Positions 36,001 through 42,000 of a stretch of 64,000 bases of DNA are shown here, piece by piece. How positions within the stretch are numbered: the first letter of the stretch is position 1; the number at the start of each line of letters is the position of its first letter. This stretch comes from Escherichia coli O157:H7. Lineage in GTDB: Bacteria > Pseudomonadota > Gammaproteobacteria > Enterobacterales > Enterobacteriaceae. Made by a program: the position numbers. The DNA lies in NCBI RefSeq assembly GCF_013167455.1, contig NZ_CP038328.1. One strand, written 5' to 3'.

Positions 36001-39000
36001 CCACTACATTTCCCCGGTGTGGAACACGCACTTCCCCCAGAGACTGGCCACAGACGCACCCGTTCTGGCAGACGAACCTGAAGTAACCCGGCAGCATCTG
36101 GTAGCTGGAGGTACCGTCATGAGAGTTGAGCAGAATAATTTCAGGGACATGTTCTCCGTTTATCTCTCCGGCCCGCCGCAGACGCAGCATGTGTTTTGTG
36201 TATCCCCGGCGGCCCGGGTCGCGCACACGGGTCTGGCAGGCGAAGAACGGCTGAAAGCCTTCCCGCTGCAGATTTTCCAGGACGGTAATGGTGGGAATGT
36301 ACGCATACCGTTCACTGCGGGAGGTGTGCCGGTCTTCCCCAAAAATACTGGGTACATGGCGTATCAGTTCTTCATGTGTCAGCGGACGGTCACGGCGTAT
36401 CTGGTTTGCAGCATAACCAAAACGACTGGCTAATCGCATACTTTGCTCCTTATCGGTGGTTAAGATTTACTGGTGCAATAAATGAAAAAAGCCGCGTCTC
36501 CCGGAGAAGACGCGGCCTGACGGGTGAAATGAATAAGGTTTATTGTCTGAGAGGCCTTTCACTGGCGAGCCACGCATTAAGCGGCTTTCCGGTAACAATG
36601 GCTGGGGCTGTATTTACCTTTGATATTAATAATGTGCAGAGAAACGCATGGTTTACTCCTTAGATTTTAAGTTTGTCCTGGGCTACACCGACAGGTTTTC
36701 CGGATGTGTCGATGACTCCTACCGTCGGTACGCCATTTTTGATTTCGAAGAACGGTTTGTTGCTACCTGAGCACAGTTGATTGTCCCCGTATTCAATCAT
36801 TTGTGCTTTCCCGGTTTTCAGGTTAACTACCGAGACAGTGTAGTCGTAGCACCAGGCACCACCACGTTCAAGCACGAAAACATAGCTGTTATCTTTATAG
36901 TTGAACTGATTCTTTGTCTGGCAATTCATACCGTCAATTTCGGTACAGGAAAACGCTTCTGTAGTATTAACGTATTTGATGTTATTTGGCAGTTTTACTT
37001 GTTTCGCAGTAGCGAAGACAGAGAACAGAATAGTTACAGCAACGAGTAAAGTTTTGATAAAAGTTTTCATGATAGACTCCTTAAATTAGTTAACCGCAGC
37101 TACGTAGTTTTTCACCAGATACGCGAATTCATGCACGCCAATTTCACCGAACCAAACCAGGTAGGCCGGGTCATCTAAACCAAAGTAACGGTAGCCAACA
37201 ACTTCATGGGTTTTTGGGTTATAGAGTGTTACGATAAAGTCCCAGCCGCAGGTATTGGCTTTGCAACCGTCGCCCTGGAACCAGACTGTACCGTTAATGT
37301 TTACTGGCGTGATACCTCCACCAGGGCCATCCATATAGCCGCCTTTACCGAACATGCCGCTCAGTCCGACCGGTTTTAATGCTTTGTCGATAGCGGCTTT
37401 GTAGGTAGCGTCACCTTCGTACAACTCGTACGTTGATGGACACGCTCCAGGTTGTTCAGCCCAGGCTTCCGGGTTACAACTAAGAGCTTGTTTTACGGTA
37501 GCCGCTTCTGCGTTAAAGTTAAAGCCCGTGAACAGAACCGCCAGAAATAACATAAGGGTATGTAAACGTTTCATTGTAAATATTCTTCCGTTGTAAATGG
37601 CGCTGGAAAATTTCTCATCAGTGAAACCTTCCGGAAGTTTCCCCCCCTTGTATGATGTATATCGCCAGTATTTTATTTCATCCCGGCTGTAATTTTTATA
37701 TTCCCCGGCACGTGCAATAACGCGGACCAGAGATATAAGGCTCATTAATAACTTTACAGGTAATTTCATAATTAAATTTCCAGTGAGTGAATTGACAGGT
37801 GAGGGGTAAAACTTTCTCTCAGGTAATATATATCTGAAAATATTTTCAATAACACCAGACAGGAAAAACACCACCACAGGCGGTGGCGTTTCTTTGGGGC
37901 GTCTTTATTTAATCCGGGCCATCGCGTTTCTCAGTGCCAAATCTGCCTCTTCCGTTATATCCAGGCTTTTCTGCAATACCGCCTCTGACCGGGTCAGTGC
38001 CTGACGTGCTGCCAGCGGTTTCCGGATATGCTCCATCGCCAGCATCGTGTCTTCATAGCCCTGCTGACACCAGGCGTCGGTATGTGCCGATGTAAAACTG
38101 AGCAGACCGCCGCTGTTGCCACCATCACCTGCATATTTCAGCCTTTTCCGGGGACGGATCTCAAGGATTGTGGTGTCCGGAAAAGCCTGGCGATCCCATA
38201 AAGAACCGTCACTCAGATGCGTCACAATCACCATATTGCATCCGGCATCGACCAGAGGCGTCACAGGGGTATTTCCCTGCATATTTCGCCATCCTCCCAT
38301 ACCACCATCACCGAACATTGTCCCCTGAACCTCACGGGGACGGAACAGCAGGGGCAGCGCGGCTGACGCAAGCAGAGCCTCTTTCTGCTGTCCGCGGGGC
38401 AGGCTCTGGATATGCTGAAAAACGGCGTTTTTCGTGGTTCCGACACCCAGTTCAGCACGAATGCAGTCAATAATATCCTGCATGCCCCCTTCTGTGGGGT
38501 ACAGCGACACATACAGCGGTAGCCCGTCTGCCAGAGCATCAGTATCAAGATAATGATCCATCAGCGCTGTCAGGGGCTCATCTGACAACAACGGCTGAGC
38601 CATCAGATTGTCAAACCCGTTGATTGTCGATATATGGCGAAGAAGCGTCGTAAGCAGTGCTCCTGCACGTCCGGGGATCTGGCAGAGGTTCATTGCCTGG
38701 AACAATTTTTTCAGCAATGAAAAGTAAACCAATCTGTTTACCGACAGCACCTGATTATTCCCCAGATGATCCCAGAGCGCCTCCAGGCGTACGGCAGCTT
38801 CTGACAGATCGGTAGAGGCCGCGATAATGGCACCATTGAATGCGCCAATGCTGGCCCCTGAAACCATGCTGATCTGTGTACCACACTCTGCCAGTGCCTT
38901 AACCACTCCCGCCTGATAAGCGCCCACCGCCCCGCCACCGGACAGCACCAGCCCCGTTTTCATTTCTGTACTCATGCAGCCCCCTTCTGAAATATTTCAT

Positions 39001-42000
39001 CGACCATACTTTCAGAGAGGCGTTCTGCAGAGCAGAGGCGAGGCATGCGAACCGGTAAGTGTTCTGCAGCCTGCGTGGTTGACCAGATCACCGGATGCTG
39101 CTCTTCACTGCACCAGTCTCCCAGCCAGTTAATCGCGTCATGCCACTCGTTATCTGCCTGCTCCCGGCCCTGACCACCAAGCCAGTCCAGAGTGTTCAGA
39201 CGCACGGTTGCACTACCGCCACTCTCCTGTGCCATCTGCGTTAATGCTTTATGTCTGAGAATATCCAGTAGCTGGTTAACCTGGCCTGTTTCGCTCTGAC
39301 GTATCACATCACCAAACGCGCCCCAGCGAAGCTCTTCAAGTGCCACATAACAACGTCCGGCAGGGGAAAATGACGCATATCGCCCGGCGCTCCACCATGA
39401 GAATATCTGCTCAAGATGTAACTGCGCCCGCTGAACCTGGTCAACACGGTGGAGTTTTTCTTCAAGATGATTCAGTTTATGGTGAACCTGATCGGCCAGG
39501 GTGAGTAACTGCTCCCGCGTATCTGCGGAATAATGCGCCAGCCTGGCTGTATCACTGACCAGTGAACTGACCCTGTCGTTTACCCGGGTAATCGCGTAGT
39601 TTGTGGTGGCAAGTGACGTTGTCATCTCCGTCAGCCAGCGCAGGGACGCCTCAACGCCCTGTGCAAGCGACGCATTGATGGCATTCTGCCGTGCAGCGCC
39701 TTCGCCGGTCAGCCCCTCTTTTAAACGCCGGAAGAACGTGCGCTCTCCGGCCGTGCGGATATGCTCCTGTGCAACATCGATTCCGTTTGCGAAATCAACC
39801 ACAAATTTTTCAGGAAGACAGGTGAGTACCTGACATACCCGGTTATCAGCAATTTGTTGAATAAATGGTGAAGTCACAGCATTGTCTCCAGCTCTTCCCT
39901 CAGCGCCTTACTGTCAGTAATGAGCTCAGGAACCCTTTCATTTAATGCCTGAAGTCGCCCGGTAAGCCGTTCCTGCGCCTGCTGATCGCGTTTATGATCT
40001 TCAGAGCTCTGAATCAGCGTGTTACGCAGTTGTTCAACTTTCTCCCTGAATGCGCAGAAAAAGGCATCGATTTCCTGGCGGACGGGCTGGTTAATATCCT
40101 GCTCAATGGATGCCTGCAGCTCCCCGAAATATGCCCGGGTCAGTGACATAACTTCCTCTCTGACCTTGTTGATATTGATCACGCTGCGACTCACATCCTC
40201 GTCATAGTTTTCCCAGCCCAGGTCACTGGTGCCAAACCATCGACAAACGGTTCCCCATACGCCACTCTGCCGACGGCGACGGGTGACGGTCTCCGTTCTT
40301 TCCTCCATAAGCGCACTCAGATTTATTTTTACCGCGAGCCGGGTCTGTAACTGGCTGACTGCCGGAAAACTGATTTTTACGGTAAAGCCCTCATCCTCCA
40401 GGCGGGCATTGATGCGACCGGCAATGTTTTCTGTGGCGTACAGGGCCGTGCCACGAAAACCTGTTTCAATCCCGCTGACGATTTTCTCCAGCTCAGGCCG
40501 GAACTGTGCTTCAGCCTCACGGTGCAGGCTGGTCACGGTCGATTCGATTTGCGTCATCAGTTCAAGGGCTTCCCTGCGATCACTGAATTTTATTTCGGGG
40601 CTGTCCGGGGCAAAATCTCGTTTCCTGTAATCCTCCCGGCCCTGGTTGTTGATACCGGACCATTGAGAAATTTTCCCCCATAATCCGGACTGAGACCTTC
40701 TTCCGCGTCGGGATAAATCAAAAGGTATTATCCATTGATTCAGTATCTGGGTGAGAGTAAATAATCTAAAAATAGTATTGCGTTGTGAACTGATATCACT
40801 TTTGAATTACAAAGGTATAGGTTCAGTAACCAGCTTTATAAGTCATTGTCGTAGCAATGAGTATAGAGTCATGCTGGCGGGAAGAATAAATATTCACCCA
40901 CAGATGGAAAACAACGTCGAAAAACCTTCAACAAACACAATACGTTCGTTAGCCTGCCCGCAAAGCGGGCAGATCAGGACAAAGAATTCCATAACGATTG
41001 TTTTTGTCATCAGAAATTCCATACAAAACCTATAGCTGCATTAAAACCTGCTGCAGGAATAGTTTCATGTGCTGTACGGTAGCGTTTGTCTGTCAGGTTA
41101 TTGAGTGCCAGGTTAATCCGGTACTGATCCTCGTTACCGAATTCTGTATTTACTGCAAAGTTGAGAGTGGCCCAGCCCGGAACATTTGTTTCGGTACCGT
41201 TACTGTCATCTTTTGCACTAGAGGCAGCACGAATAAAAACATCAGAGATTATGTTGGCCTGACCCATCACAAGAGTATGTTTCAGCCCTATACGTCCGTT
41301 TATCGCTGGTTCACCTGTATTAGTTGTTTTTAATGTTGAAGTTTCATATTGCCGACGAATTAAATTGCCACTGATATATGGCGAGAAAACCCAGCCATTA
41401 TATTCCGCGCTTATTTCCAGTCCCCATGTTTTTGCCCGATCAATATTGTCATAATAATAGTAGCTACTACGGGAGGAGTTGGTGTTACCATTGCAAACTA
41501 TACTGCCATCACAGATCAGACTTGCAATATAATCTTTAGCTTCTGAGTAGTAAACTGCGCTGTCAATCAGCCACTGATTACCATTATATCGTGCACCTAA
41601 TTCAAAGTTATTGGAGTGTTCAGCCTTAAGATCAGGATTTCCGTATGTGACACTGCCGCCCGCAGATGTCTGCATAAAAAGCTGGGAGAGTGTGGGAAAT
41701 ACGTAGCCTTGCGCGAACGCAGCGCGTAACTCCAGGTTATCGAAACCTGAATAGCGCAGGCTTGTAGATGTTACCATTTCGTGATCACTCGCAGACTCTC
41801 TGGCAAGAGAGGTATCGCTTATAATGCCTGCGGTATATGATACTCCGTCACCACGCGTCAACTTTGAAGAAAGCCAGTATTGGCGAACTCCCATTGTCCA
41901 TGTCCAGTGATCGGCGAATTGCCAGTCATTTTGTGCGAATAGTGAGACTGTACTTTGCTCTGACTCATAATAGGAGCGAGTTCGTGTTTCCTTATTAATG

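Follow-up and report, generated by a model that had tools for sequence, protein, structure and literature searches.

We analysed a 64,000-nucleotide stretch of the Escherichia coli O157:H7 contig NZ_CP038328.1 (assembly GCF_013167455.1), referred to here as the window, at a locus with three consecutive minus-strand open reading frames (ORFs) encoding proteins of 227, 301 and 356 amino acids (aa). A first-pass annotation had described the three ORFs, all of which are present, as an uncharacterised operon ending in a patatin-like phospholipase and as a candidate novel defence or toxin system. Our comparisons show that, at the level of sequence, this locus is what remains of a self-contained mobile cassette of three genes after loss of its 5' part. 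In its intact form the cassette encodes a dynamin-like GTPase of ~800 aa, a YjcZ/RdcB-family protein of ~300 aa and a patatin of ~357 aa, and the genes are joined by 4-nt overlaps. The features of the locus are as follows.

39874-40557, minus strand: gene 1 ORF, 227 aa (ORF listing)
38972-39877, minus strand: gene 2, YjcZ/RdcB family, 301 aa, GTG start (ORF listing and Pfam)
37905-38975, minus strand: gene 3, patatin-like phospholipase, 356 aa (ORF listing and Pfam)
39874-40701, minus strand: 3' remnant of a dynamin-family GTPase gene, codons 524-798 (tblastn, NCBIfam CrfC, open frame)
40695-40700, no strand: deletion junction and probable IS629 excision scar GAAGGT (junction probe, comparison with Sakai and UM146)
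40702-41009, minus strand: yoeE 3' flank replacing the native promoter region, identical to the yoeE flank of Sakai and UM146
37869-37885, minus strand: intrinsic-terminator-like hairpin and T-run, CACCGCCTGTGGTGGTG TTTTT, directly 3' of the patatin stop (terminator scan)

Both overlaps between the ORFs had been read as ATGA. This is the case at 38972-38975, but the sequence at 39874-39877 is GTGA, gene 2 starting with GTG. Genes 2 and 3 are each preceded by a Shine-Dalgarno-like sequence, and the hairpin and T-run at 37869-37885 marks the end of the operon. Insertion sequence (IS) elements aside, ~25 kb around the locus are 99.97-100% identical to SpLE2 of O157:H7 Sakai, where SpLE2 lies between yeeX and cobU and the counterparts of the trio are ECs_2796-2798. 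A literature search on ECs2796-2798 found nothing. The first-pass annotation was correct that the trio is absent from CP4-44 of K-12, in which yeeP'-isrC-flu-yeeR fill the slot, and that its context is mobile, the cassette being found on genomic islands and plasmids.

Gene 1 had been taken for a coiled-coil protein in its own right. When the window was searched with an intact 798-aa 'dynamin family protein' (tblastn), only residues 524-798 were recovered, at 40701-39877 and with 100% identity; residues 1-523 and the GTPase gene upstream of the intact dynamin gene were not recovered in the window. The ATG that opens the 227-aa ORF is the first in-frame ATG and corresponds to Met572 of the intact protein. 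The frame stays open for 83 codons 5' of this ATG, up to a stop at 40807-40809, and contains no start codon there. The 227-aa product matches the NCBIfam CrfC model at positions 530-736 of 742 (E=4.3e-19). Pfam gave nothing below 0.001 for this ORF, the GTPase domain of the Dynamin family (PF00350) included. In the intact dynamin, the G1 (GTMKAGKS, residue 75), G3 (DTPG, 235) and G4 (NKFD, 298) motifs all lie within the deleted part. Database relatives of the ORF are longer and are named 'dynamin family protein, partial', some of them with Dynamin_N domains, and the DNA match of most E. coli genomes to the window ends at ~40700 and then runs into a 'dynamin family protein' gene. These comparisons identify the 227-aa ORF as the final, in-frame part of a longer dynamin gene (codons 572-798 of 798) and not as a stand-alone gene. 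The earlier statement that no ATPase or GTPase partner is present is true of the window only by deletion, as intact cassettes carry the dynamin-like GTPase. The intact dynamin matches the NCBIfam CrfC model end to end (E=1.2e-166). Its score of 556 bits is below the equivalog cut-off of 1146, which makes it a paralogue of CrfC/RdcA. Database names for relatives of the three genes are inconsistent and misleading: dynamin fragments appear as 'vimentin yjdA' or 'dGTPase', YjcZ as 'chemotaxis protein' or 'methyl-accepting chemotaxis protein', and patatin fragments as 'ferredoxin reductase'.

The truncation has a defined end. A 171-bp junction probe has dynamin homology up to 40700 and yoeE 3'-flank homology from 40695, and the junction fuses the 3' flank of the TonB-dependent receptor gene yoeE to dynamin codon 524. 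The same uninterrupted (IS-less) junction was found in 98 of 5426 complete genomes. Compared with intact loci, the deletion removed a YeeP-type GTPase gene, the promoter region and dynamin codons 1-523, including the whole G domain. A promoter scan of the yoeE flank (40702-41009) returned one weak sigma-70-like site (40789-40761), whose 9/12 match is at chance level. In Sakai, IS629 is located at the same junction, with the flanks …GGTGG/IS/GTCTCAG… and no target-site duplication. Because this duplication is missing, we infer that the deletion was associated with IS629. The native yoeE flank in UM146 continues GGTGGGATAAAT (also written …GAAGAAGGTGGGATAAAT), and the junction in the window, …GAAGAAGGT/CTCAG…, is without two bases of the native flank (GG) that Sakai has kept. 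The simplest reading of these sequences is that an IS629-associated deletion from the yoeE flank to dynamin codon 523 came first and that the IS was then excised in the lineage of the window, leaving the scar. The reverse order, with the IS-less junction ancestral to the IS629 junction of Sakai, is disfavoured: Sakai keeps the GG, its IS has no target duplication, and a 1-in-16 coincidence would be needed.

Three IS629-type copies are present elsewhere in the window (42656-43965, 53724-55033 and 62568-63877). They are ~95.8% identical to the IS629 of Sakai, and two of them have clean 3-bp target duplications (CAC and TTC). Sakai has no IS629 at these three positions, despite 99.97-100% identity elsewhere in the region. 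The low identity to Sakai IS629 points to a related but different lineage as the source of the window and suggests that this lineage carries a different IS629 subtype. The element at 42656-43965 splits yoeE (41010-42632 and 43730-44497, minus strand), which is intact in Sakai and UM146.

The product of gene 2, in which no motif had been recognised, is a full-length member of the YjcZ family. It matches Pfam YjcZ (PF13990) over model positions 1-272 of 272 (E=4.7e-70) and K-12 RdcB/YjcZ over the full length with 30% identity (E=2e-37), and it is 100% identical to its counterpart in intact cassettes. In the AlphaFold model (mean pLDDT 80), a single helix of ~100 residues leads into a compact helical domain with an invariant ELRWGxFG motif. 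In Foldseek searches with this model, the best match in the PDB had E=0.18, and the matches in AFDB50 were YjcZ-family entries only. With no structural relatives beyond the YjcZ family, the fold therefore adds no mechanistic clue. PDB profile matches obtained from the YjcZ alignment (viral spike HR1 regions, designed helices) were discarded as spurious products of coiled-coil composition. The family is small: clustering of 1.84 billion proteins at 50% leaves 327 YjcZ representatives.

The gene 3 product matches Pfam Patatin (PF01734) at residues 9-239 (E=8e-24), and the patatin signature described for it is fully present (SGGGAVGAYQAG, Ser42 in GASIG, Asp223 in FGDGG). G13-G15, S42 and D223-G224 are invariant in 14 orthologues with 37-64% identity. 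The usual Arg/Lys of GGGxR/KG is Val in the window patatin and Ile, Met, Leu or Lys in the orthologues, which also share a conserved GGW...QGNTP motif and a C-terminal helical tail. The window patatin is 99.4% identical to its counterpart in intact cassettes, and from these residues it is judged intact and predicted to be catalytically competent. None of the three proteins contains a hydrophobic segment; the patatin has no signal peptide, and its maximum 19-residue hydropathy is 1.5. Matches to specific lipase families were weak. The NCBIfam model of the Legionella effector VpdC gave E=8e-5 over 39 residues that cover the DGG catalytic motif only, and the CapV models were marginal (PADLOC, E=4e-5 and 21 bits; NCBIfam CBASS_lipase, 19.5 bits against a cut-off of 200).

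Intact loci, such as those of FDAARGOS_943 and one ST131 strain, encode in order a GTPase family protein (290 aa), a dynamin family protein (about 795-798 aa), an RdcB family protein (301 aa) and a patatin (356 aa). A search of 5426 complete E. coli genomes found 80% or more of the 4.37-kb cassette in 2442 of them, and it is common for one genome to have several related copies. Pectobacterium versatile, Pseudomonas fluorescens and Vibrio parahaemolyticus have the same series of an ~800-aa Dynamin_N gene, YjcZ and patatin with short overlaps, in flanks that are otherwise unrelated. At the loci of distant YjcZ representatives (25-36% identity), a patatin gene is next in 4 of 4 and a dynamin gene lies upstream wherever the contig allows. 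A species-level scan with one genome per species yielded 79 loci, whose flanks were searched with hidden Markov models. The scan patterns were built from 8 closer relatives of gene 2, which biases the sample toward gene 2 relatives.

Non-core YjcZ loci, n=31: dynamin upstream in 31, patatin downstream in 31
Enterobacteriaceae core-type loci, n=47 (43 with enough downstream flank): dynamin upstream in 47 (frameshifted in L092), patatin in 0 of 43
Locus L094, too short to classify, n=1: dynamin cut by the contig end, patatin cannot be told

The non-core loci are from E. albertii, Pantoea, Erwinia, Serratia, Budvicia, many Pseudomonas, Allochromatium, Thiodictyon, Gallionella, Comamonadaceae, Marinospirillum, HdN1 and others, and the core-type loci are from Citrobacter, Kosakonia, Enterobacter, Cedecea and related genera. 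Despite the biased sample, the split between patatin-linked and patatin-less loci is clean. In a midpoint-rooted neighbour-joining tree, the patatin-less YjcZ proteins, K-12 RdcB included, form one clade. The core rdcA-rdcB loci (L042-L093 and L002) are patatin-less, and all other sampled YjcZ genes are patatin-linked. Judging from this distribution, RdcAB may be a relative of the mobile cassette that was domesticated and has no effector. A conserved unit with the patatin gene last had been anticipated by the first-pass annotation and is seen in all 31 non-core loci as well as in the E. coli genomes. Its further suggestion, that two novel NTPase-free sensors partner the lipase, fails on the same loci: the first gene encodes a full-length dynamin-like GTPase, and the middle one belongs to the RdcB/YjcZ family.

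The cassette was also found on 44 plasmid records. One variant, with 62% identity to gene 2, is common to about 25 plasmids of Klebsiella, Enterobacter and E. coli, and on an IncFIA/FIB plasmid (NZ_CP073626.1:1372-5743) exactly three genes are isolated between IS5 and IS30. O157 strain PA11 contains a second, intact cassette in the serX island beside cah, so that the truncated SpLE2 copy is a redundant paralogue in this strain. The YeeP-type GTPase was considered as a fourth component and set aside as part of the island backbone, cah separating it from the cassette in PA11. A metagenomic variant (L012:2352-8973) has two consecutive dynamin-like genes (786 and 490 aa), followed by genes for a GYF_2-domain protein, YjcZ and patatin.

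The cassette resembles several known systems in part. RdcA/RdcB of K-12 (YjdA-CrfC/YjcZ) consists of the same two families in the same order and with overlapping genes, and RdcA shares with the intact island dynamin the end-to-end CrfC match and the G1, G3 and G4 motifs. In contrast, a coupled patatin is found in 31 of 31 loci of the cassette clade and in none of the 43 evaluable core rdcAB loci; the two form separate clades, and rdcAB is a core operon of the flagellar regulon, whereas the cassette is mobile. The window itself lacks an adjacent full-length RdcA-type GTPase, of which only codons 524-798 remain, although intact cassettes have it, and neither the tree nor the CrfC score indicates orthology with the core two-gene operon. 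Eleos (LeoA and LeoBC) also uses dynamin-family GTPases; it is found in defence islands and requires the P-loop for defence (Millman et al., 2022). For that dynamin operon, Millman et al. took a co-localisation of roughly 60% as the signal. Unlike the cassette, which has a single dynamin-like protein, Eleos has two or three consecutive ones, no YjcZ and no lipase. PADLOC LeoBC/LeoA models match the intact dynamin weakly and in the P-loop region only (LeoBC, 8.6e-5 and 19.8 bits); the PADLOC Leo models have no match among the window genes, which also lack the two dynamins of Eleos. The L012 variant, which joins two dynamin-like genes with YjcZ and patatin, is an architectural bridge to two-dynamin Eleos. 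CBASS with CapV has in common with the cassette a patatin-like phospholipase as a presumed membrane-destroying effector of the abortive-infection type. The cassette has neither a CD-NTase cyclase nor a cyclic-nucleotide-sensing context: no PADLOC cyclase model matches genes 1 or 2, none of the three cassette genes encodes a cyclase, and the patatin does not reach the cut-off for a CapV-type effector. Finally, DynA of Bacillus subtilis is a bacterial dynamin-like protein tied to phage resistance via the membrane. It is described as a two-headed protein with a housekeeping role, in which it seals membranes and delays lysis, and it has neither a dedicated lipase nor a YjcZ partner. No sequence relationship of DynA to the cassette dynamin was seen beyond the G domain. 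The cassette is therefore distinct from Eleos, CBASS and RdcAB itself. It fits best as a variant form of the dynamin-associated systems, with a patatin as the effector, and has already been mentioned in print.

In a transcriptome study of E. coli MP1 published in 2026, operons of the type 'dynamin family, RdcB family, phospholipase' were located on two islands, of which one is next to EcoKI and the other carries Druantia (PMC12922286). In that study the cassette operon was the most strongly up-regulated gene set in Kapi1 lysogens and received the label "putative dynamin phage defense system" (PMC12922286). No model in PADLOC 2.0.0 covers the cassette. PADLOC also returned no models for the first two genes of the trio, the gene preceding the GTPase gene or the two hypothetical genes downstream of the operon. 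The first-pass failure to match the trio to a named system thus stands as far as PADLOC 2.0.0 goes, although a putative label already exists in print. In a search of openly accessible literature, we found no functional study of a dynamin and patatin pair, a YjcZ and patatin pair or a dynamin-like anti-phage cassette; recent naming of the cassette elsewhere, for instance in the newest DefenseFinder models, is possible. Within a few kb of cassettes we found BrxC (E=0), HerA (E=3e-274) beside a SIR2 gene, an EcoRV restriction-modification pair, an NERD-UvrD helicase and a PDC-S24 candidate. WYL-domain (BrxR/CapW-like) regulators lie within a few kb upstream in five loci, from Gallionella, two Pseudomonas, Paenacidovorax and a metagenomic contig (L046:2531-3520, L021:373-1269, L039:1719-2861, L007:1752-2624 and L012:1-126), and in the Gallionella locus the regulator directly abuts the cassette. 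This hints at a regulatory logic shared with BREX and CBASS.

The work on RdcA and RdcB provides a basis for a possible mechanism. In K-12, RdcA binds RdcB, and together they activate the membrane diguanylate cyclase DgcE, an activation that depends on GTP hydrolysis (PMC6510439). Docking of RdcA onto the membrane enzyme varies with the nucleotide state of the GTPase. By analogy, the dynamin-like protein and YjcZ of the intact cassette would form a GTP-controlled switch complex, which would gate the phospholipase in place of the membrane enzyme activated in K-12. Phage infection, membrane stress and a fall in GTP are candidate triggers. The triggered lipase would degrade membrane phospholipids and so abort infection, or otherwise protect the host of the mobile element. 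We consider it probable, by this analogy, that the locus is a truncated relic of a mobile cassette whose intact form is a GTPase-switched lipase defence. The argument for immunity comes from context, and the precedents for dynamin-based defence (Eleos, DynA) count in its favour. The idea of a defence system put forward in the first-pass annotation is accordingly reasonable, on analogy, for the intact cassette but not for the window copy.

The window copy is most likely a silent or non-functional relic, because it has lost the G domain and the native promoter region, has no start codon for the retained dynamin codons and is left with a promoter match at chance level. At least one genome of the lineage, PA11, has an intact paralogous cassette elsewhere. 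The lineage tolerates an intact lipase gene without the GTPase, which fits, if weakly, a lipase dependent on positive activation. Several points weigh against a relic of a defence system. In the truncated copy, the ORFs for YjcZ and patatin have remained perfect, and read-through transcription from yoeE or IS elements, giving residual function, is conceivable, though we judge it improbable. The closest characterised relatives, RdcAB, act in c-di-GMP signalling and not in defence. The association with defence neighbours is a descriptive one from about 20 sampled loci, and the E. coli cassette is located in CP4-44-type island backbones (antirestriction, RadC, CbtA/CbeA), not in classical defence islands. 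No YjcZ homologue was found in the phage genomes of the collection, an observation we regard as neutral.

Essentially as the first-pass annotation had it, the truncated trio could still work, with the C-terminal dynamin stalk fragment, YjcZ and patatin forming a toxin or defence module that needs no GTPase. Genes 2 and 3 have stayed intact, nearly or fully identical to their full-cassette counterparts and each equipped with its own Shine-Dalgarno-like sequence; the truncated layout is seen across many O157-type genomes that top the similarity search; and the RdcA T103D variant still binds RdcB, suggesting that partner binding does not need GTP hydrolysis (PMC6510439). However, the 48 retained upstream dynamin codons have no start, there is no good ribosome-binding site at Met572, and the native promoter is gone. 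C-terminal dynamin fragments standing alone are seen only among E. coli decay products ('partial' proteins and fusions), whereas the loci outside E. coli all have a full-length dynamin-like gene or one cut only by the contig end. Persistence inside a recent clone says little about selection, and in Sakai IS629 further separates the remnant from upstream transcription. A working trio thus appears quite unlikely. The intact cassette could instead have no role in immunity and be a mobile RdcAB-type module for c-di-GMP enzymes or biofilm, or serve membrane-lipid remodelling or repair with a lipase of the housekeeping type. Its dynamin-like protein and YjcZ are paralogous to the DgcE activators RdcA and RdcB (PMC6510439), membrane surveillance is ascribed to bacterial dynamins such as DynA, and the E. 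coli cassette fills an island slot otherwise held by Ag43/Cah adhesins. We regard these roles as unlikely, though less so than a working trio. The patatin-linked clade stands apart from the vertically inherited enterobacterial rdcAB clade, it is distributed patchily on islands and plasmids across distant genera, and it recurs beside BREX, SIR2-HerA, restriction-modification genes and WYL regulators. The cassette is induced in lysogens (PMC12922286), and E. coli strains already have the core rdcAB.

The presence of the cassette in pathogenicity-type islands of Shiga toxin-producing and extraintestinal pathogenic E. coli, together with the weak VpdC match, could also suggest a patatin that acts as a virulence effector or toxin against eukaryotic or competitor cells in the manner of ExoU/VipD, its partners being chaperones or export aids. 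This is very unlikely. The VpdC match spans the DGG catalytic motif only, the patatin has neither a signal peptide nor a hydrophobic segment, no secretion genes are conserved beside the cassette, and the same cassette is found in free-living Allochromatium, Gallionella, Thiodictyon and soil Pseudomonas. Among these explanations, we favour the truncated relic of a GTPase-switched lipase defence.

The island contains other features near the locus. Two small minus-strand genes lie 3' of the patatin terminator (37086-37769, 227 aa; 36660-37070, 136 aa), the second encoding a protein with a signal-peptide-like N-terminus. Neither protein has a match in Pfam-derived annotation, PADLOC or NCBIfam. 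The two genes travel with the cassette in SpLE2-type islands, but they were rejected as cassette members, as the terminator intervenes and the PA11, plasmid and non-E. coli cassettes lack them. The CbtA/YeeV toxin of the island toxin-antitoxin pair appears truncated: its ORF (33488-33751, minus strand) encodes 87 aa, compared with 375 bp (about 124 codons) for K-12 cbtA. The antitoxin gene cbeA (33840-34208, minus strand, 122 aa) is intact, and the Sakai annotation has an equally short yeeV. Downstream of the island are three tRNA-Asn (GTT) genes (52021-52096, 55742-55817 and 57566-57641), with an IS629-type copy between the first and the second; asn-tRNA genes are hot spots of island integration.

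The window copy is a decayed remnant and ordinary in itself, but it points to a very common and conserved cassette. For annotation of O157-type strains, it means that the 'hypothetical protein' encoded 5' of RdcB-family genes is to be read as a pseudogene fragment. We tentatively propose, as a possibility somewhat short of even, that the intact cassette, present in about 45% of complete E. coli genomes and in many proteobacteria, is a new GTPase-gated phospholipase immune system, and that RdcA/RdcB is its effector-less domesticated sister, with the output rewired from the lipase to DgcE. If it is a defence system, it would be among the commonest untested ones in E. coli, often with more than one related copy per genome. 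The truncated copy of O157/O55-type strains would then be a ready-made 'switch-less' allele for studying control of the lipase. Dynamin-based immunity would have a second effector logic, in which a GTPase switch is coupled to a lipase. The orphan YjcZ fold would gain a role, and the RdcAB pair of c-di-GMP signalling would be linked to the immunity of mobile elements.

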